64,000 nucleotides of DNA from Candidatus Bathyarchaeota archaeon (GCA_963780185.1 CAWABA010000011.1:231402-295401), one strand, 5' to 3'. Shown: positions 8,004 to 58,852, counted from the first letter of the stretch. Notes: generated from the letters alone by a model not told the origin. Numbers and translations: made by a program.

Positions 8004-9227
8004 ATGAAAGTATTGTATTTGGCGAACCCTCTTATGGGTGGAACAGGCGGGGACAGGCGAAGCTTCGAAGTTCTCAGCCGAGTTGAGCAGCACGGAGTAG
8101 ACCCTGTTATTGCAGTGGACGATTTCGTGTTGAAAAAGATGAAGAGCGAAGGAAACCCGCTTTGCCAACGCCACAAAATCTACAGCATTAAACGTCCCAA
8201 CGTTATCTATGACAAATACTTCCGAAGTGCCAGCCGAGCCGCGCTGGATTGCATTTCAATTTATGAAACCGCCAACACAATAGCCAGCATAGCGCGGGCC
8301 GAACGGGTTGAATTCATAGTTTCTCACCATGAAAAAACCGATTTCATGCTTGAAGCCTGCTTCGCCGCAAAAAAACTCCGTCTCCCTTGGACCTGCCTCT
8401 TTCAGCTTCCCCTTTTCCCGCCATACGCCTCAACCGAATGGCGAGTCGTCAGAGGTGCACGCAAACTCTACATGTACGCCCTCTACTCACGGCTGTACAC
8501 TGTAGTTGCAAAAGCATTAAAATCCACTGTGCCGTTGGCTGTCAGCCCTTCCATAGAACTTGAAACCAAAAGCTTCCTCGGCAAAAGCATCAAAATGTAT
8601 GTTCTTCGTCCCGGCGTGGGCGTGGATAACGAAAAAATGCAAAAAGTTGAGGCTGCCCAAGAGCGGGTAGATGCTTTTTTCTTTTCAAGGCTTGCTCCCG
8701 AAAAAGGAATCTATGATTTGCCGCAAATAGCTTCCGAAATGGCGAAGACTAAGCCTGACTTGAAGTTTTTGTTCGGTGGGCGGTTCGGCGCGGTTTTATT
8801 CCAGAAAAACTTTGAAAGTTTAGCAGCGAAAAATCAGCTTGGTGAACGCTTGGTGTACAAGGGGTTTCTTGGGCAAGTGGAGCTTTACGGGTTTGCGAAG
8901 GCAGCCAAAGTCTTGGTTTACCCCAGTCGGCACGATGCGTTTCCTCTGGTTGTTCTCGAAACCCTTGCGTGCGGCACACCCGTCGTCGCCTACGGCATTC
9001 CAGCAATAACGTCTAATTTTCCAGCGGATGTGGTTAAGCCAGTTCCCGTGGGAAACTTTGAGCAGATTGCTGCTGAGGCATTAAAAATCATTAACAATCC
9101 GGACCTTAGAGTGGAGCTTTCTCGAAAAGCCAAGGCTTTCACAGCGCAATATTCGTGGGCTAACGTGGCGGCGGCGGAAGTTGAAGCCTACAGCAGGGTA
9201 TTTGAAAAATTCAAGAATCCTGCCTAA
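8004..9227 (+). CDS. GT4 glycosyltransferase
   Basis: SRLAPEKG and YPSRHDAFPLVVLETLACGTPVV GT-B motifs. Confidence 0.9.
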   Translation: MKVLYLANPLMGGTGGDRRSFEVLSRVEQHGVDPVIAVDDFVLKKMKSEGNPLCQRHKIYSIKRPNVIYDKYFRSASRAALDCISIYETANTIASIARAERVEFIVSHHEKTDFMLEACFAAKKLRLPWTCLFQLPLFPPYASTEWRVVRGARKLYMYALYSRLYTVVAKALKSTVPLAVSPSIELETKSFLGKSIKMYVLRPGVGVDNEKMQKVEAAQERVDAFFFSRLAPEKGIYDLPQIASEMAKTKPDLKFLFGGRFGAVLFQKNFESLAAKNQLGERLVYKGFLGQVELYGFAKAAKVLVYPSRHDAFPLVVLETLACGTPVVAYGIPAITSNFPADVVKPVPVGNFEQIAAEALKIINNPDLRVELSRKAKAFTAQYSWANVAAAEVEAYSRVFEKFKNPA

Positions 9228-9233
9228 GCCAAA

Positions 9234-9503
9234 TCAGAGCAGCATTGCCGCGAGGACTCGGTTTAGTTCTTCTCGGTTTTTGACGCCGCGGAAGATGGCT
9301 TTTCCGCTTGTGTAAAGTCGGAAAGAAAAGTCTTCGAATGTGAGCTCAAAAATTATCCCAGCGATTTTGTTGTTTACGGTGGCTTTCTTTAGGATGTTGG
9401 CGATGGCTTCATCTTTCTTTTCGTATTTAAAGAACACGATGACGTCTTTTTCAGCGCCGCATGTTCCCTCTACCCGTGCCACATAGTCGTCAAGAGTCGC
9501 CAT
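9234..9503 (-). CDS. small protein resembling the C-terminal domain of MoeB/ThiF-like proteins (TCG ... LYTSGKAIFRG)
   Basis: 89-aa ORF overlapping the sufS stop; single Cys; similarity recognised by eye only. Confidence 0.6.
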   Translation of the reverse strand: MATLDDYVARVEGTCGAEKDVIVFFKYEKKDEAIANILKKATVNNKIAGIIFELTFEDFSFRLYTSGKAIFRGVKNREELNRVLAAMLL

Positions 9504-10734
9504 TATAGTCCCTCAATCTCCTTGAGCACCTCAACGAAACGGTCAATTTCTTCTCGTGTATTGTAAATATAGAAGCTCGCTCTCGCGGAGGAATGAAGTT
9601 TGAGGATTTCTTGGTGCAGGGGCTGGGCGCAGTGGTAGCCGCTTCTTATCATTATGCCGTAGTTGTCGCAGATGAGGGCAACATCATGTGAGGATAAGCC
9701 TTCAATGCTGAATGATATGATGCCGCATCTTTTCGTGAGGTCGCTGGAGCCATGAATCGTGACTTTTCTGCATTCCCCCATGCGTTCAAACGCGTATCTG
9801 GTTAGATCTTTCTCGTGGCTTACAACGTTATCCATCCCAACAGCTTCCAGGTACTTCACGGCTTCGCCTAAGCCGATTGCGCCGCAGATGTTAGGGGTTC
9901 CTGCTTCAAACTTCCACGGCAACTCATTTAAAGTTATGCTGCATCCGCCCTGCGGCTAAACTCCACTTCTTTAATCATTTCGCCCCCACCTTCGAACGGC
10001 GGCATCGCTTCAAGCAAAGCCTTTTTGCCGTAAAACACGCCGATTCCCGTGGGTCCAAGCATTTTGTGACCTGAAAAAGCCAGAAAATCCATATCCAAAT
10101 CCTGAACGTCAACAGTCAAGTGTGGCATAGACTGGGCACCGTCTACAAGCATTAACGAGCCGTTGTCGTGGGCTGCCTTCGTGATGCGTTTAACGTCATT
10201 GATTACTCCCGTGACGTTTGAAACTTGGCTTAAACAGGCGATTTTAGTTTTTTTGGAGAATTTAGCTTCGAAATCTTCATAGTCCAGGGTTCCGTCGGCT
10301 TTGACGTTGGCGTATTTGACGGTGAACCCTCTGAGTTTGGCGGTGATTTCCCAGGGCACAATGTTACTGTGGTGTTCCATCAGAGAAACCAGCACTTCAT
10401 CTCCTTTGCCAAGGTTGCTTAGCCCCCAAGAATATGCAACCAAGTTGATGGCTTCGGTTGTGCCTCTGACAAAAACAACCTCAGAGGATTCCTTTGCGTT
10501 TATGAATTTTGAGATTATTTCCCGCGACTTCTCGTATAGGTCAGTGGCTTCCGACGATAAGGTATGGACTGAGCGGTGGATGTTGGCGTTGTGGTTTTCG
10601 TAAAAGTCGATTTCAGCGTTTATCACTTGGCGGGGTTTCTGGGTGGTTGCGGCATTGTCAAAGTAGATCAAGGGGTAGTTGTTGACTTTGCGTTTGAGTA
10701 TCGGGAAATCCTGTCGAATCGCTTGTAAATCCAC
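9503..10734 (-). CDS. sufS: cysteine desulfurase, SufS/group II (frameshift near 9945)
   Basis: YFDNAATTQKP, MEHHSN, DGAQS, FSGHKMLGPTG, FEAGTPN, RSGYHCAQP. Confidence 0.93.
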
Positions 10735-31555: not shown

Positions 31556-31664
31556 TGGTGCTCCGGCCGGGATTTGGACCCGGGTCCGCGACTCGAGAGG
31601 CCGCTATACTTAGTCCCTTAGTAAGAAATCTTAGTAAGGTTTGACCGGACTATACTACCGGAGC
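31556..31664 (-). tRNA. tRNA-Glu(CUC) with a 31-nt D-loop intron (31610-31640), CCA encoded
   Basis: GCTCCGG/CCGGAGC acceptor stem, GCGGC-CTCTCGA-GTCGC anticodon arm, CCGGG/CCCGG T-arm; BHB-like helix GGTC/GACT. Confidence 0.93.
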
Positions 31665-31746: not shown

Positions 31747-32100
31747 CTATGTTTCCTCATCCACGTTTAGGAAACTTTTGATTTTTGTCATCATCTCAGC
31801 CAACCCTTTCGCTGTTATAGGCGGTTGATAACGTATTCGCAGGACTTCCCAGCCTTTGGCTTCTAGCAACTCATCAATTTGGCTGTCTTTATCCTGTTGT
31901 TTGTCGCTTGAATGTACAGGTATGCCGTCTAAGTAGACGATTTTGCGTTTGTTCATCCAGCAGAAGTCTGGGACAGTTGATTTGAGGATGATTGGTTGTT
32001 GGGTTACCATGCCCGTGGTTAACCCGGCTTTGCTCAGTTCGTTGAATAACGCCATTTCTGCCTGGCTGACTTTAGGATGCATATTCTCTCTGTAGCTCAC
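31747..32100 (-). CDS. small DUF559/Vsr-like PD-(D/E)xK endonuclease
   Basis: SQAE, VPDF, IVYLDGIPVH, D..L...GWEVLRI pattern. Confidence 0.75.
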   Translation of the reverse strand: MSYRENMHPKVSQAEMALFNELSKAGLTTGMVTQQPIILKSTVPDFCWMNKRKIVYLDGIPVHSSDKQQDKDSQIDELLEAKGWEVLRIRYQPPITAKGLAEMMTKIKSFLNVDEET

Positions 32101-32160
32101 GATGTTTCCCGAAAGGTAGCATTATATGTTACCCTTAATAAAGGGTATACAGTAAAACGG

Positions 32161-32335
32161 CTAGTCCTTGCGCCGTTGGCAACTAAAAGTAGGCTTGACG
32201 GATCGCTCTCATCGACCCAAGACGCGAATCAGAAGAAGCACCTGTTTGTCAGGGTTTGGCAATCCGCGCCTCGTTCAACCGTGACCCGCCAAGCAATGGG
32301 TGTACCTCTTGGATGGCTATTTCTCGCAAGATAAC
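32161..32335 (-). ncRNA. candidate rod-shaped structured RNA (about 170 nt)
   Basis: nested helices whose mismatches resolve as G-U only on the minus strand; TTTATA at 32355-32350 upstream; U-run just downstream. Confidence 0.6.
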
Positions 32336-32456
32336 AATCCCTTGCGCGGTATAAATGGACTTGTGGTTGTACAATTGCAACAACAGCATGCAAGCTTCGC
32401 TAACAAAACTTGTTTTTCAGGTTGCAAACCTTGGAGATCAACGTTTGCTTGCTTAA

Positions 32457-32669
32457 TTATGCAACTATCATTTGCTCTGTTTCTTCTAAAATAGCAGGCA
32501 AAAGTGTCACGTTGTCTTTCTTCGGTGCGGTTCGTTTTGCGAGCTCCGGCTTTTTCTGGTTACCTATCCAGTACATGCTCCAGCCCATGAAGAAAATGAA
32601 AATCAACGCTGGAAGAAGCAGAAGTGCCATTTTGTTGCTGCGTTTGCGATTGCGTTTTTTAAATGTCAA
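32457..32669 (-). CDS. small single-TM protein
   Basis: basic N-terminus, one TM, 70 aa. Confidence 0.55.
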   Translation of the reverse strand: MTFKKRNRKRSNKMALLLLPALIFIFFMGWSMYWIGNQKKPELAKRTAPKKDNVTLLPAILEETEQMIVA

Positions 32670-32890: not shown

Positions 32891-35314
32891 TTAGCTTTCG
32901 GGGTTTTTCTTAGCTTCAATCGATGGGTACTCTTTTAGTTTATCAGCCATTTCCGCGAGTTGTTTGTTTACGAGGTAGTTGATTGTTCCTTCTTCGAAGG
33001 TTCCGTCCGCGCGTTTTTCGCCGGCTTTTGTTCCTGTGAGAAATTCGATGCCTTCATCGATTGTTTTGGCTGAGTAAATGTTGAATTTGCCTGTTTTCAC
33101 GGCTTCAAGAACTTCTTCTTTAAGCATCAGGTTCTGTACGTTGCTTTCGGGTATCATGACGCCCTGCTGCCCTGTGAGTCCTTGGAGCTTGCAGACTTCG
33201 AAGAAGCCTTCGATTTTTTCGTTTACGCCGCCGATGGCTTGAACTTCCCCTTTCTGGTTAACGGAGCCTGTGACCGCTATGTTCTGCTTTATCGGTCGCC
33301 CAGAGAGCGCTGACAGAATACAGTACAGTTCGGTGCTGGATGCGCTGTCGCCTTCGACGCCTTCGTAGTTCTGCTCAAAAACCAATCTTGCCGAGAGGCT
33401 CAAAGGCTTGTCTCTGATGTACTTGTCGTTCAGGTAGCCGCTGAGGATTAGGACGCCTTTTGTGTGTATGGGTCCGCCCATTTTGGCTTCTCTTTCAATG
33501 TCGATGACTCCTTCTCTGCCAAGGCCTATGCTTGCCGTTACGCGTGACGGGTTTCCGAAGGCGAAGTCGCCTAGCCCCATGACAGATAAGCCGTTGATTT
33601 GCCCCACTTTTTCCTGAACCGTGTCTATTAGGAAGAATCCGCGTTGGATCATTTCCTGGATTTTTTCTTGGATAAGTTTTGAGCGGTAAACTTTTTCTTC
33701 TATCGCTTTCTTTATTTGGTCTCCCGTTATGAAGTCTGAGTTTTCTTGTGTGGCGTAGTAGTTGGCTTCCCGAATTATGTCAGCGACATGGGCGAATTGG
33801 GTTGACAGTTTGTATTGGTCCTCGGCTATTCTTGAGCTGTACTCGACTAGTTTTGCGACGCCTGTTCCGTCGAGGTGTTTGAGGTTTTCTTTTTCGCAAA
33901 GCGTGCATACCCAAGCGGCGTACTGCATCACTTTGTCTTCGGTTCTGTTCATCACCGTGTCGAATTCAGCTTTGATTTTGAACAGGTCCCTAAAGTCAGG
34001 ATCCAACTCAAACATCATCTGGTACAGGTAGGGTGTTCCAATGAGGATAACTTTAGCTGTCAGCGGGATAGGCTGCGGTTTGAGGGTTTTAACGCTGAGG
34101 AATCCGTAGCGTTCTTCGGGCTCCGCGATGGTCATGTTTCCGTCTCTTAGGTCTCTTTTGAGGCCATCGTAAGATAGCGGGTTTCGAAGCAGCTCTTCGA
34201 CCGGGATGATTAGGTATCCTCTGGTGGCTTTGTGGATTGAACCTGCACGGATCATGCTGAAGTCGGTGGTTAATGCGCCGAACTGCGCTTCTTTCTCTGT
34301 TTTGCCTAAAAGGTTGGGGTACGTCGGGTTGGTTTCCACAATTACGGGCGCGCCTTTGGTTTCGGAGTTGTCGATTACAACGTTTACCTCGTATTTCTTG
34401 TAGGGGTCTTCCCTCATCCAAGGCATCTGGAAGGGGAACTGCTCCTGCTGCTCGCCTGCGCCTCCTCCTCTTCTTATGAATTGCTGAAGGTTATCCAGCA
34501 TGTCGTTTTCTACGGCTTTGAGGTAGGTTGTCACTTCGGTGAGGCCGTGGTATTTCTCTGTTATGCGTTCCACTAGGTTGCCGATGGAGTAGAGGGCAAC
34601 TTCTTTGTTGAGTTTCTTTAAGGCATCGTGAATTTGCCTCTCCATATCGATAAGCTGCCGCATCGTGTTACGGAACTCAGTCTCCAGTAACTCCCTTTTC
34701 TCCTGCAGTTTATCCTTGGTTTTCTGGGGCAGCGCCAGCATTTCTTCTTCGCTCAGTGGTTTGCCGTCTAAGACTGGGATAAGCAGCAATCCAATTGGGG
34801 TGGTTTGGATGACGAAGCCTTCGCGTTGAGCTTTGACGTTTAACTCTTCAATTAGCTGTTTCCTCTTTTCTTCTAGCCCTCGGATGGTGGCTTCTCTTTT
34901 TGCCGCGTAATCTTCGCTTTCAAAGGCTTTGGGAAGCGCGGTTTTGATGTTTTCAATAAAGTTTTTCATGTCGTCTCGAAATTCTTTGCCGTTTCCCGCT
35001 GACAATCGGATGGCTTTGGGTTCGTATTGATTTTCAAAATTGTTGACGTAGCACCAGTCAGGGGGGACAGGCTGGGTTTTGGCTTGTGCTTCAACGAAGT
35101 TTTTCACGGTGGTTTTTCTGCCTGTTCCAGGGTAGCCTGCCACATATATGTTGAAGCCGTTGTCTTTTATTCCGAGTCCGAATTTTAAGGCGCGGACGGC
35201 TCGCTCTTGCCCGATGATTTCGTCCAGCGGGGCAAGTTGCTTTGTTGATTCACATCGCATAAGGTCAGGGGGACATATGTTTCTGAGTTTTTCAAGAGGT
35301 AACTTGTTTACCAT
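32891..35314 (-). CDS. soluble Lon-like (LonC-type) protease
   Basis: GYPGTGRKT Walker A-like, long coiled insert, EGDSASS / NEKIEG Ser-Lys dyad; no TM segment. Confidence 0.9.
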   Translation of the reverse strand: MVNKLPLEKLRNICPPDLMRCESTKQLAPLDEIIGQERAVRALKFGLGIKDNGFNIYVAGYPGTGRKTTVKNFVEAQAKTQPVPPDWCYVNNFENQYEPKAIRLSAGNGKEFRDDMKNFIENIKTALPKAFESEDYAAKREATIRGLEEKRKQLIEELNVKAQREGFVIQTTPIGLLLIPVLDGKPLSEEEMLALPQKTKDKLQEKRELLETEFRNTMRQLIDMERQIHDALKKLNKEVALYSIGNLVERITEKYHGLTEVTTYLKAVENDMLDNLQQFIRRGGGAGEQQEQFPFQMPWMREDPYKKYEVNVVIDNSETKGAPVIVETNPTYPNLLGKTEKEAQFGALTTDFSMIRAGSIHKATRGYLIIPVEELLRNPLSYDGLKRDLRDGNMTIAEPEERYGFLSVKTLKPQPIPLTAKVILIGTPYLYQMMFELDPDFRDLFKIKAEFDTVMNRTEDKVMQYAAWVCTLCEKENLKHLDGTGVAKLVEYSSRIAEDQYKLSTQFAHVADIIREANYYATQENSDFITGDQIKKAIEEKVYRSKLIQEKIQEMIQRGFFLIDTVQEKVGQINGLSVMGLGDFAFGNPSRVTASIGLGREGVIDIEREAKMGGPIHTKGVLILSGYLNDKYIRDKPLSLSARLVFEQNYEGVEGDSASSTELYCILSALSGRPIKQNIAVTGSVNQKGEVQAIGGVNEKIEGFFEVCKLQGLTGQQGVMIPESNVQNLMLKEEVLEAVKTGKFNIYSAKTIDEGIEFLTGTKAGEKRADGTFEEGTINYLVNKQLAEMADKLKEYPSIEAKKNPES

Positions 35315-55228: not shown

Positions 55229-55720
55229 ATGTCACAGGAATATCGTCATATACTTCGTATTATGGGCACCGACGTTCCAGGTACCCTTAAGACTTCTTAC
55301 GCTATCGCACAAATAAAAGGTGTTAGCTTTAGCCTCTCAAATGCAATTTTGAAGAAGGCGGAAGTAAATCCTGACCTGCGAGTAGGCTTCCTAACAGAGT
55401 CAGATTTGTCAAAGATTGAAAACGTAATTAGGGAGCTTTCAAAGAGCAGCGTTCCAACTTGGCTTTTTAATAGGCGAAAAGACTCGGACTCAGGAAAAGA
55501 CATGCATCTTCTAAGTGCTGACTTAGTTTTAAGGACAAAAACTGATATTGACGAGGCCAAAAATATCAGATCTTGGCGTGGATACCGTCATGCATACAGC
55601 CTCAAAGTCCGTGGTCAACACACGAAAACCACTGGAAGAGCAGGCAAGGCTTTAGGTGTCAAGAAGAAGACTCTACTGCAGAAACCTGGCGCGCCAGCAG
55701 CTGCTGAAGGAGGCAAATAA
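55229..55720 (+). CDS. rps13: 30S ribosomal protein S13
   Basis: WLFNRRKD, SWRGYRH..LKVRGQHTKTTGR. Confidence 0.96.
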   Translation: MSQEYRHILRIMGTDVPGTLKTSYAIAQIKGVSFSLSNAILKKAEVNPDLRVGFLTESDLSKIENVIRELSKSSVPTWLFNRRKDSDSGKDMHLLSADLVLRTKTDIDEAKNIRSWRGYRHAYSLKVRGQHTKTTGRAGKALGVKKKTLLQKPGAPAAAEGGK

Positions 55721-55722
55721 AC

Positions 55723-56313
55723 ATGGGGGATCCGAAGAAGCAACGTAAAAAGTTTGATACGCCAAGGTTCCGTTGGCGCAAAGACATCCTTCAAGAAGAG
55801 CTCAAACTTCTGGGTCAATATGGCTTGCGCAACAAACATGAACTTTGGCGCCACAAGACAAGTCTGTCTAAGACCAGAGGCATCGCCCGTTCACTAATCA
55901 GCAAGACTCCTGAAGAACGAGCACGAATGGAAAATGAGCAGTTGACAAAACTCAAGAAAGTCGGTATTCTGCAGGAAACTGCCGTTTTAGATAACGTTTT
56001 AGACTTAACCATTGAAGACATTTTGGAGCGTAGGCTTCAAACAATCGTTTTCCGCAAGGGCTTAGCAAGAACAGTGTTCCAATCCCGCCAACTAATCACT
56101 CACGGACACATAAGCATAGACAACCGCCGAATAACCGTTCCAGGATACATGGTGGCAAAAGCTGATGAAGCCAAAGTTGTCTACTCACCTGAAAGCGCTG
56201 TCGCAAACCAAGCCCACCCATTACGCGCCGGTTTATCTGTTGTGGCTAAACAGCCTGAAATTAGGCCACCTAGCCGAGGTAGACGAGGCGGAAGAGGAGG
56301 CGGCAGATTCTGA
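55723..56313 (+). CDS. rps4: 30S ribosomal protein S4
   Basis: [27 protein letters not shown]. Confidence 0.96.
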
Positions 56314-56714
56314 GCGCCAACAGCAAAAGAAACGATAAATGGGCAATCGTGCACATCTTCAGCTCTTACAACAACACCTTGATCCACATCACTGACATCT
56401 CAGGCGCGGAAACAATCGCCCGAACAAGCGGCGGTATGTTCGTTAAAGCAGACCGTATGGAGTCCTCTCCGTACGCTGCGATGCGTGCAGCAACCGGGGC
56501 GGCAGAAGTAGCCCGAGACAAGGGAATCACAGCCATCCACATTAAAGTTAGAGCCCCCGGCGGTAGTGGTCCAAGAACTCCAGGTCCAGGCGCCCAAGCA
56601 GCCATCCGTGCATTGGCAAGGTTTGGGTTCCGTATTGAACGCATTGAAGAAGTAACCCCAATTCCTCATGATGGCACAAGAAGGCCTGGCGGCAGAAGAG
56701 GAAGAAGAGTCTAA
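56310..56714 (+). CDS. rps11: 30S ribosomal protein S11 (probable CTG start at 56310)
   Basis: [41 protein letters not shown]. Confidence 0.95.
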
Positions 56715-56815
56715 ACTCAGTTTCCCTTCTTTATTGACAGAAAAATTGAAATAATGCACCTATATCTCTATTGAACCAAAACCTGTACAGTAATCTTATT
56801 GGAGTGTCTCAGCAA

Positions 56816-57631
56816 GTGAAAATGGAAATCCTTGAAAAAAACGATAGCAACCTCCGCGTAATCATCAGGGACGCGGATGTTCCGTTAATGAACGCTCTGC
56901 GCCGCATAGCGCTTGCTGAAGTGCCGACCATGGCAATCGAAGAAGTTGTCATGATTGAGAACAGCTCCATACTGCAAGACGAAATAATCGCTCACAGGCT
57001 GGGACTTACCCCGCTGAAAACCGATTTAGACGCGTATAACCTTCCTGAAGAATGCGAATGCCAAAGTGAATTCGGCTGTCCACAATGCCGAGTAACCCTC
57101 ACCATCGACGCTGAAGCGAAGGAAGGAACAAGAACGGTTTATTCAGGAGAAATCGTTTCTGAAAACCCTGAAATTATTCCAGTGTCAGATAAGATCCCGA
57201 TAATTAAGCTTGCCAAGAACCAGAAGCTGAAGCTTGAGGCTTATGCTCGTTTGGGCAGAGGCAAGGTCCATGCGAAATGGCAGCCCGTTTCAATGTGCGT
57301 TTACAAATATTACCCGAAAATCACAGTTCCATTGGAGAAATGCGAAGAGTGCTCAAAATGCGTTGATAACTGCCCCAAAAAAGTGCTGGCAGTTAAAGAT
57401 GAAAAAGTCGATGTTCGAGACCTCTTGGCATGCAACCTCTGCATGGACTGCGTTGAAGCTTGCCCAAAGAAGCCTTCACCGCTCACAGTTGAATGGGAAA
57501 AGAACGCTTTCATAATGAACATCGAATCAACAGGTGCACTTCCTCCGGGACGTATTCTCCAAGAAGCCACCAAAACATTAGGTAAACAACTAAACGAAAT
57601 TGAAGAATTGTTAAAGGCTGAATCGCAATGA
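56816..57631 (+). CDS. rpoD: RNA polymerase subunit D (Rpo3) with Fe-S domain
   Basis: NALRRIALAEVPTMAI, DEIIAHRLGL, HAKWQP, CEECSKCVDNCP/CNLCMDCVEACP. Confidence 0.95.
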   Translation: MKMEILEKNDSNLRVIIRDADVPLMNALRRIALAEVPTMAIEEVVMIENSSILQDEIIAHRLGLTPLKTDLDAYNLPEECECQSEFGCPQCRVTLTIDAEAKEGTRTVYSGEIVSENPEIIPVSDKIPIIKLAKNQKLKLEAYARLGRGKVHAKWQPVSMCVYKYYPKITVPLEKCEECSKCVDNCPKKVLAVKDEKVDVRDLLACNLCMDCVEACPKKPSPLTVEWEKNAFIMNIESTGALPPGRILQEATKTLGKQLNEIEELLKAESQ

Positions 57632-57990
57632 AAGAGTCAAAATCAACAAATCCCGAATTAACCCAGCTTATCGATATGCTCAAGAAGGAGAGCAAAGAAA
57701 AACAAGCAGCCATATGGCTGGATATTGCAGAGTATCTTTCTAAGACACGTAGCCAACGCATCTCCGTTAACCTGAGCACAATAAACAGGAACACAAAACG
57801 CGCTGAAACAGTGGTTGTTCCAGGCAAAATCTTAGGGTCAGGCAGCATAAACCATGCTTTGACTATCGCGGCGTTTGGTGCTTCTGAGAAAGCCAAGGCG
57901 AAACTTTTGGCTGCAAAAGGAAAATATATTTCTATTCCCGAGCTCATGGAGAAGAATCCTAAGGGCTCAAACATCAGGATTATTCGGTGA
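57628..57990 (+). CDS. rpl18e: 50S ribosomal protein L18e
   Basis: TNPEL, VNLSTINR, VVVPGKILGSG. Confidence 0.94.
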   Translation: MKESKSTNPELTQLIDMLKKESKEKQAAIWLDIAEYLSKTRSQRISVNLSTINRNTKRAETVVVPGKILGSGSINHALTIAAFGASEKAKAKLLAAKGKYISIPELMEKNPKGSNIRIIR

Positions 57991-58439
57991 AAAACATGCA
58001 AACCCCAAAAGCTCCAGTTACCCTCGTTAATGCTGAAGGATTGATAGTTGGCAGACTTTGCAGTAAAGTTGCTAAGCGGCTTCTAAACGGGGAAGAAGTA
58101 ATCATTCTTAACGCTGAAAAAGCCGTGTTCTCAGGCAAAAAGAAAAGCAAAGTCGCAGAAGCCAAACAGTTTCTCGAAGTAGGCGCACCAGAACGCGGTC
58201 CATTCCATTACCGCAGACCAGACAAGTATCTGCGCAAAACCGTGCGAGGCATGGTTCCATTCAAGCAACCTAGAGGCAAAACAGCCTATAAACGTCTCAA
58301 GGTCTTCATGGGTGTACCCTTGGAGCTTAAAGGCAAAGAAATGATTACGTTCACAGAAGCCTCATCTGCCAACCTGAAAGGGCCACATTTCACCCTTCTG
58401 GAACTGGCCAAAGAGATAGGCTGGAGTAAAGGTGACTAA
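57987..58439 (+). CDS. rpl13: 50S ribosomal protein L13
   Basis: GRLCSKVAKRLL, GPFHYRRPD, VRGMVP. Confidence 0.95.
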   Translation: MKNMQTPKAPVTLVNAEGLIVGRLCSKVAKRLLNGEEVIILNAEKAVFSGKKKSKVAEAKQFLEVGAPERGPFHYRRPDKYLRKTVRGMVPFKQPRGKTAYKRLKVFMGVPLELKGKEMITFTEASSANLKGPHFTLLELAKEIGWSKGD

Positions 58440-58441
58440 TT

Positions 58442-58852
58442 ATGCCCGCGAAGAAAGTTTTAGTTGTCAGTGGAAAACGAAAAACCGCTGTAGCCCGCGC
58501 CGTAGTTAAACAAGGCGTTGGACGAGTGCGGATAAACAGGACTCCTGTTGAAATTTACGAACCCGATATTGCGAAAGCAAAAATCATGGAGCCGCTACTG
58601 CAGGCAGGTACAGAGGTCTGGGAGCAACTAGACATGGATGTCCAAACCAGCGGCGGAGGCTACATGGGTCAGGCGGAAGCAGCCCGGGTGTCAATTGCAA
58701 ACGCGCTTTTGAAATGGACGAAGAGTACTCATCTGCGTACCGTTTTCAGCGAATACGATCGAACCATGATTGTCGGTGACAGTCGAGCTAAAGAAACCAA
58801 AAAAGTCGGTGGAGCAGGCGCACGGTCTAAGGAACAGAAGAGTTACAGGTAA
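58442..58852 (+). CDS. rps9: 30S ribosomal protein S9
   Basis: GKRKTAVARA, GGGYMGQAEA, QKSYR. Confidence 0.96.
   Translation: MPAKKVLVVSGKRKTAVARAVVKQGVGRVRINRTPVEIYEPDIAKAKIMEPLLQAGTEVWEQLDMDVQTSGGGYMGQAEAARVSIANALLKWTKSTHLRTVFSEYDRTMIVGDSRAKETKKVGGAGARSKEQKSYR

Follow-up and report, generated by a model that had tools for sequence, protein, structure and literature searches.

Does the short intergenic region between a Lon-like protease gene and a small nuclease gene in a Bathyarchaeota genome encode an RNA, and would such an RNA act by itself or together with the nuclease beside it? Bathyarchaeia are abundant uncultured archaea of sediment and soil. The window analysed here, a 64,000-nucleotide stretch of DNA from a Candidatus Bathyarchaeota archaeon, had been predicted from its sequence to carry a rod-shaped RNA of about 170 nt, recalling bacterial 6S RNA and serving either as a stand-alone regulator or as the RNA partner of the nuclease. 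Every motif and coordinate of this original prediction was found on the minus strand: TTTATA at 32355-32350, the helix arms, the U-run at 32157-32154, the DUF559 ORF and the tRNA.

Genomic setting and homologs

The window represents ordinary chromosomal DNA, as indicated by a cluster encoding S13, S4, S11, an RpoD/Rpb3-like protein with Fe-S motifs, L13 and S9 at 55229-58852 (plus strand). Elsewhere, two neighbouring minus-strand ORFs, 9503-9922 and 9934-10734, together make up a class-V aminotransferase (cysteine desulfurase-like) and cover profile positions 1-238 and 245-371; a frameshift, an assembly error or an in-frame stop could account for this split. The genes around the candidate RNA are:

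32891-35314, minus strand: Lon-like protease with LonC-helical, LonB-like AAA and Lon_C domains (Pfam)
32457-32669, minus strand: 70-aa ORF containing a single hydrophobic segment, located between the RNA and Lon
31747..32100, minus strand: 117-aa DUF559/Vsr-fold endonuclease gene (PF04480, fold match)
31556..31664, minus strand: tRNA-Glu(CUC) whose D-loop region carries an insert of ~31 nt and whose CCA end is encoded (ARAGORN after excision)

Homologs were sought with the Lon-like protease gene just upstream as the seed, and 80 genome loci (L numbers below) were retained. Eleven of these were Bathyarchaeia/Bathyarchaeota MAG contigs with Lon identities of 60-85%, and the others were bacterial apart from one Methanolinea. 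The RNA was present in four of the 11 Bathyarchaeia loci, the same four being recovered by blastn and nhmmer across the 80 loci and by covariance model R1 across 14 sources:

L025 8888-9071, Lon strand: RNA homolog (blastn, nhmmer, R1)
L003 8906-9095, Lon strand: RNA homolog (blastn, nhmmer, R1)
L002 8891-9073, Lon strand: RNA homolog (blastn, nhmmer, R1)
L015 8761-8950, Lon strand: RNA homolog (blastn, nhmmer, R1)

All four homologs are syntenic, lying directly downstream of Lon and, where it is present, the small membrane-protein ORF. Among loci with a Lon identity of at least 80%, four out of five carry the RNA, the exception being L001, which has a VapBC-like pair at the RNA position; at 60-77% identity the count was 0 of 6. 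With filters off, R1 searches of L001, L004, L005 and L007 gave no hit below E 0.79; in L007 the contig continues for just ~1 kb after Lon. In genomes whose locus lacks the RNA, it could lie elsewhere. A check for MITE-like behaviour, covering the window and the loci, found a single copy in the window (blastn of 32101-32460 against the whole) and one in each of the four loci, always at the same syntenic site, and the phage and plasmid collections contained no similar DNA.

Several of the neighbouring genes are shared among these loci. The 70-aa ORF, which had no Pfam or NCBIfam match, has tblastn relatives at the same place in L002, L003 and L025 (39-45% identity), and a similar ORF of 68 aa occurs in L001. 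Full-length relatives of the Lon-like protease (40-56% identity) were found in many bacterial phyla and one Methanolinea (loci L010-L080), and these distant relatives suggest that the family may have spread by horizontal transfer. The tRNA-Glu that had been noted beyond the nuclease proved real, since ARAGORN reported tRNA-Glu(CUC) after in-silico removal of 29-37 nt, with excisions beginning at 31646-31635. The intact gene was missed by ARAGORN (0 tRNAs in the whole window) and by Rfam at the gathering score. Its insert can form a hairpin of its own, and copies of the tRNA with 97% identity follow DUF559 in L002 and L025.

Two of the loci have to be read with care. Every compared gene of L025 was recovered in several tblastn pieces in differing frames, and two genes of L003 (3922-4600 and 8271-8393) were split likewise. 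These splits are probably long-read indel errors, which makes apparent pseudogenes there untrustworthy, and 1-nt alignment indels contributed by L025, and partly by L003, are therefore unreliable.

A strand-specific hairpin with compensatory changes

The center of the element is a long hairpin:

32193..32294, minus strand: rod, an imperfect hairpin recognised from its MFE and z-score, the z-scores of its homologs, 38 conserved core pairs and its G-U:A-C ratio

This 102-nt core pairs as originally drawn, and the three inner helices and the apical stem held in both RNAalifold and a count of pairs. Folded from the minus strand, the core reached an MFE of -44.0 kcal/mol (z -3.65), a stability equalled by one dinucleotide shuffle in 200, compared with -27.5 kcal/mol (z -0.18) for the plus strand. 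In the window, the fold runs from a 12-bp basal helix through a small asymmetric loop, a 5-bp helix, a 13-bp helix and a ~6x9-nt internal loop to an apical stem-loop. Over all sequences the rod helices measure 12+2, 5 and 13-14 bp, and the hairpin has ~33 bp overall across 102-110 nt. In the MFE and consensus folds the mid-rod loops are small (1x4 and 1x2) and the largest loop, ~6x9 nt and U-rich on its 3' side, sits beside the apex, preceded by ~30 bp of lower helices in the RNAalifold consensus; the apical stem-loop itself is short and variable.

The strand preference recurred in every sequence. Sense-strand MFEs ranged from -44 to -50.9 kcal/mol and z-scores from -3.65 to -6.2 across all five sequences (-5.36, -4.24, -6.20 and -4.94 for the four homolog cores), and the antisense strand was weaker by 5.8-16.5 kcal/mol in all five and by 5.8-10.2 kcal/mol in the homologs. 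Among the 38 core pairs, the window has 9 G-U and 0 A-C; over the five sequences these pairs comprise 151 Watson-Crick, 26 G-U, 4 A-C, 7 other combinations and 2 gaps. The proposed asymmetry, with G-U mismatches on the minus strand appearing as A-C on the plus strand, is therefore real, as seen from the z-scores of the two strands and the 26:4 ratio.

To quantify the covariation, we used RNAalifold on the five-sequence alignment A2, which recovered this rod as 41 pairs, of which 6 show compensatory double changes, and we counted pairs in a 45-pair structure composed of the rod plus the originally proposed AGAGGTA/TACTTTT helix. Homologs and covariation, the check that had been suggested for this RNA, were both found: beside the four syntenic homologs, standard pairs filled 94.6% of 223 cells and 7 of the 45 pairs changed on both sides, values that none of 500 shuffles reached, in five related sequences and with shuffles that ignore phylogeny. 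The covariation score was 0.253 versus 0.199 and was reached by 2 of 500 shuffles under the same phylogeny-blind control, and control structures slid by 1-3 columns paired in 28-45% of cells. The measure "further pair types" was no higher than in the shuffles (287/500). Covariation is modest because there are just five related sequences from one narrow clade.

Nested pairing over the whole ~170-nt length, as first proposed, did not hold up. The full 207-nt interval gave z -1.18, with 28 of 200 shuffles as good, and the stretch 32160-32340 was no better than chance (z -0.78). The outermost helix of the original prediction, TCTTGCG/CGCAAGG, has its 3' arm in a segment of 37% identity and its 5' arm at or before the probable RNA start, and is not supported. 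The next helix inward, AGAGGTA/TACTTTT, is possible. Its positions pair in 97% of cells, but with a 5' arm that never varies no pair shows a double change, and a register shifted by one base, preferred in some MFE folds, is equally possible. Changes on its 3' side comprise two compatible ones, G-U to G-C and U-A to U-G, and one that breaks a pair.

Two further interactions were considered and rejected. A pseudoknot between CACCCA and a UGGGU bulge is broken without compensation in L002 (UGGAU) and L015 (UAGGU). An extension of the rod through GAAAUAGC and the U-rich 3' region takes registers that differ between genomes in MFE folds, with none in the window.

A putative transcription unit

Conservation is patchy in a gene-like manner, and it divides the remainder of the locus into the following elements:

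32360..32396, minus strand: conserved block with GCTTGCATGC
32350..32355, minus strand: TTTATA, archaeal TATA-box-like; CCATTTATA is invariant in 5/5 sequences
32295..32325, minus strand: 5' arm, with a probable start near 32325; contains an invariant 26-mer
32181..32192, minus strand: 3' flank CUACUUUUAGUU, block identity 0.81
32154..32180, minus strand: variable 3' region, ending in a T-run at 32157-32154 that is an alternative 3' end

In alignment A1, mean pairwise identity is 0.33 in the outer 24 nt, 0.77 in the 37-nt block that precedes the TATA-like box, 0.93 in the TATA block CCATTTATA, 0.92 in the 5' arm, 0.69 in the rod and 0.81 in CTACTTTTAGTTGC; it is 0.37 in the next 28 columns and 0.73 in the DUF559 promoter. 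With flanks at 33-37% identity, unconstrained intergenic DNA has diverged here to near randomness while the arm has stayed unchanged. Within the rod, the base is conserved in sequence and the middle and apex in shape alone, with a 6-nt insertion in L003 and L015.

TTTATA probably serves as a promoter element, judging from its location upstream of the conserved RNA, at a distance of ~25-30 nt, and a start near 32325 is likewise suggested by the onset of strong RNA conservation and the spacing from TTTATA. The block at 32360-32396 includes the palindrome GCATGC, and TTGTTGTTG N8 CAACCACAA forms an imperfect inverted repeat within it. This block is a candidate site for a regulator or transcription factor, or alternatively it may be transcribed. 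A search for a second copy of this motif found none in the window at up to 3 mismatches, ungapped, using a pattern one base longer than the window's own sequence, which itself went unmatched.

The 5' arm is the best-preserved part of the unit. Its 26-mer AAATAGCCATCCAAGAGGTACACCCA (32322-32297), which contains the SD-like AAGAGGT, is identical in 5/5 sequences, and a 23-mer inside it occurs exactly once each in L002, L003, L015 and L025 and in 0 of the 76 other loci. In the short form of the RNA, AUAGCCAUCCA and CACCC are predicted to be mostly single-stranded, with mean unpaired probabilities of 0.71-0.74 and 0.84-0.97, respectively. In the long form, part of the arm pairs with the U-rich 3' region in four of five sequences, in differing registers, so that the arm may not be free.

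At the 3' side, the tract that follows the rod reads TTTT, TTTT, TTCT, TTTTT and TTTT in the five sequences, and the UUUU at 32188-32185 may be the 3' end or an Sm-type site. As an alternative, the flank CUACUUUUAGUU might form pairs with the AGAGGUA in the 5' arm. Further downstream, a run of 3-6 T stands at the 32157-32154 site in 5/5 sequences, and hairpins within 32154-32180 are weak and unconserved. The two possible ends would give an RNA of ~140 or ~172 nt. We infer the start, the end and the independence from the transcript of Lon and the small ORF from these features.

Coding potential and known RNA families

No frame on either strand was open in all five sequences when six frames were compared, and an antisense frame of 77 residues in the window corresponds to 22-43 residues in the others. 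Seven nucleotides after the SD-like AAGAGGT stands TTG in the window, ATG in L025 and L002, and ACG in L003 and L015. A small-ORF reading was rejected on this variation of the start codon, on frames and lengths that differ and on following peptides that are unrelated.

Rfam 15 returned no family at the gathering score for the window, and none at E<=10 for the window region, L015 or L025. A literature search outside subscription journals and bioRxiv supplements turned up no description of such an RNA or of Bathyarchaeia ncRNAs. The RNA family is absent from Rfam 15 and previously uncatalogued.

The suggested likeness to bacterial 6S RNA (RF00013) extends to a length of ~150-190 nt, an elongated and largely double-stranded shape and an independent small gene, and fails on structure. 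The biggest loop here is apical and ~6x9 nt rather than a large central bubble, ~30 nt of invariant 5' arm lie outside the rod, and no 6S model matched at E<=10; archaeal RNA polymerase, moreover, has no sigma-70 holoenzyme to mimic. Y RNAs and Ro-associated RNAs share a basal stem conserved in sequence and a more variable distal part. Unlike them, this RNA has 5' and 3' ends without clear mutual pairing and no Rfam match, and neither a TROVE/Ro nor an RtcB gene was present in the Pfam annotation of the window.

Archaeal H/ACA and C/D guide sRNAs resemble it as hairpin-based small RNAs with internal loops. Reading by eye revealed no convincing BHB, K-turn, C/D or H/ACA motif: no ACA follows the hairpin (3' flank CCUACUUUU, CCUCCUUCU or UCUGCUUUU), and there is no terminal RUGAUGA/CUGA box pair and no K-turn. 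Rfam gave no H/ACA or C/D match at the locus.

A trans-acting small RNA as the preferred explanation

We consider it highly probable that the locus is a genuine gene for a structured RNA. What the analysis shows directly is the fold, its strand, its conservation, the absence of coding potential and the presence of one copy at each locus, and compensatory changes, strand specificity and the absence of a shared ORF are the general marks of structured ncRNAs, seen here in just five related sequences. The stand-alone alternative of the original prediction gains from the strand-specific conserved structure, the compensatory changes and the promoter-like box of the RNA's own. Our best reading is an RNA specific to a sub-clade of Bathyarchaeia, independently transcribed and ~140-175 nt long.

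For its function, we tentatively propose a trans-acting mechanism via the 5' arm and the hairpin. With a TATA-like box of its own, preceded by the conserved upstream block, the RNA would be independently transcribed and would act in trans. Its invariant single-stranded 5' arm may recognise a conserved partner, most simply an RNA by base pairing, and the long hairpin with the U-tract would provide stability and a platform for protein, as in base-pairing regulatory sRNAs. Such sRNAs, for example in Methanosarcina and Haloferax, combine a 5' single-stranded seed with a stable hairpin and a U-tract. The RNA described here is like them in its size class, its own intergenic promoter, an unpaired 5' stretch that is the best-conserved part and a hairpin followed by a U-run; it is unlike them in having an unusually long hairpin, and neither a target within the window nor a relationship to a catalogued family was found. 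Scored by ungapped pairing, the best non-self site for the arm in the 64 kb reached 31, compared with shuffled maxima with a mean of 33 and a largest value of 43; for a genome of perhaps 1.5-2 Mb, this negative result carries little weight.

Invariance of the arm would be expected of a protein-binding site just as much as of an RNA-pairing seed, and a protein-docking or decoy role of the arm is the main rival to the pairing mechanism. Here the RNA would be a protein-binding scaffold following 6S-, Y- or 7SK-like logic, with the arm, basal helix and 3' flank docking a protein and the remaining rod acting as a spacer. In one variant, the SD-like AAGAGGU and the start-codon-like position at the helix base could form a decoy initiation site. 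The positions conserved in sequence lie mainly at the base, where the 5' arm, the 12-bp basal helix and CUACUUUU.GUU meet, and the middle and apex vary in sequence and length, including the 6-nt insertion noted above, as expected of a docking site and a spacer. U residues are abundant on the 3' side of the apical internal loop and in the 3' flank, as they are in Sm-type sites, and the search for an RNA target in the window was negative. We nevertheless rate a scaffold as rather unlikely: by eye the RNA has no K-turn, C/D or H/ACA protein-binding motif, it belongs to no Rfam family and lacks the large central bubble of the 6S type, and no candidate for a partner gene lies nearby, Pfam showing ordinary housekeeping genes in the window.

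The hairpin might instead work in cis, either as a 3' UTR, terminator or stabiliser of the transcript of Lon and the small ORF or as a 5' leader or attenuator of DUF559. Both neighbours are on the same strand, the strong hairpin with CUACUUUU behind it looks like an intrinsic terminator, and conservation extends ~40 nt upstream of the TATA-like box, so that transcription could begin further upstream. Set against this are the ~60 nt of unconserved sequence (33% identity) between the small-ORF stop and the conserved block, and the invariant TTTATA with the right spacing for a start at the conserved arm. Furthermore, DUF559 has a promoter box of its own, as originally claimed:

32135..32142, minus strand: TATA-like box TTTATTAA of the DUF559 gene; ATTTATTA is conserved in 5/5 sequences and in L004

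This TTTATTA box is retained in L004, a locus that contained no RNA with filters off and has an opposite-strand coiled-coil ORF instead, with DUF559 and the homologous promoter kept beside Lon. In L002, an insertion of ~470 nt (9075-9540) has the RNA and the old DUF559 TATA box on one side and the DUF559 start on the other. A mere terminator would also have no need for an invariant 26-mer. We regard a cis element as unlikely, and continue to prefer an independent, trans-acting RNA.

The adjacent nuclease

The neighbouring protein was described correctly in the original prediction, as DUF559 by PF04480 (E 1.4e-9, 38.3 bits against a cut-off of 20.6) and as Vsr-like by fold, with its gene starting 54 nt after the U-run. 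An AlphaFold model of the 117-aa protein, made with 26 sequences, had a pLDDT of 75.5, and its best PDB match by Foldseek was E. coli Vsr (1cw0_A; E 5.4e-4, TMq 0.68). The catalytic domain of I-Bth0305I (3r3p) was also a fold match (E 2e-3). Identity to E. coli Vsr and I-Bth0305I is 14-18%, and there was no PDB sequence match and no NCBIfam model. D45, D58, H63, D66 and K67 are invariant in the 26 DUF559 sequences. To our knowledge, neither Vsr nor I-Bth0305I uses RNA.

A threshold of E<=1e-5 gave 464 clusters of relatives; the 120 that were listed have 68-97% identity and, where named, are annotated as DUF559 or very-short-patch-repair endonucleases, mostly from Bathyarchaeia. The DUF559 family thus looks far wider than the RNA, with 464 clusters against an RNA in 4 of 11 Bathyarchaeia loci. 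DUF559 lies downstream of Lon in six of 12 Bathyarchaeia sequences (the window, L002, L003, L004, L015 and L025), five of which carry the RNA.

In a bolder proposal, the RNA would be the nucleic-acid subunit of a hitherto unknown archaeal RNP, acting as a global decoy or sequestering RNA or as a guide or regulator with the adjacent Vsr-fold nuclease. We see this as quite improbable. If true, the decoy version would be a 6S- or Y-like role for an archaeal machine, for example through the invariant SD-like mimic at the helix foot, and the nuclease version would be the first RNA-associated member of the Vsr-fold family.

The specific suggestion that the RNA is a guide, antitoxin or inhibitor of the nuclease fares worse and appears very improbable. 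The RNA stands immediately upstream of DUF559 in 5/5 RNA-bearing genomes, and the protein is a credible nuclease by Pfam and fold. These five genomes are close relatives, however, and share their wider gene order, so that adjacency counts as one observation, not five, and weighs little. It is also broken twice, by L004, which has DUF559 in the same place without the RNA, and by the insertion that separates the two in L002. These breaks do not refute a partnership, since a genome whose Lon locus lacks the RNA could carry it elsewhere. The breadth of the DUF559 family and the 68-97% identity of the listed relatives are housekeeping-like rather than toxin-like, and we know of no RNA-guided enzyme in the Vsr family. 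Complementarity between the arm and the DUF559 5' region (GCUACCUUUCGG) was considered and set aside: it is partial in the window and unconserved, the relatives reading GCUAAUUCUUGUG, GCUUCCUUUCGUG and GCUUCUUUUCGUG. We also dropped the argument that in L025 DUF559 is a pseudogene beside an intact RNA, since the frameshifts in every compared gene of that locus point to assembly errors.

Finally, an element with no RNA function, whether a DNA palindrome (a protein site or MITE remnant) or a decaying small ORF, fits the narrow distribution (4 of 11 Bathyarchaeia loci) and the short ORFs that begin at the rod base in three of five sequences, but is scarcely credible given the 26:4 ratio of G-U to A-C and a consistent strand bias unexpected for a DNA palindrome, the compensatory changes, a single-copy syntenic position with no repeat in the window or loci and no phage or plasmid match, ORF frames and lengths that differ, and ACG at the start position in two sequences.

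Implications

At present the element is one more orphan sRNA family with a narrow distribution. The locus yields a concrete RNA gene and a covariance model, R1, for the Bathyarchaeia, and the 26-nt invariant arm offers a ready probe for metatranscriptomes, for pull-downs and for predicting targets. Interest in the RNA would widen if the arm proved to dock a protein machine or the neighbouring nuclease.
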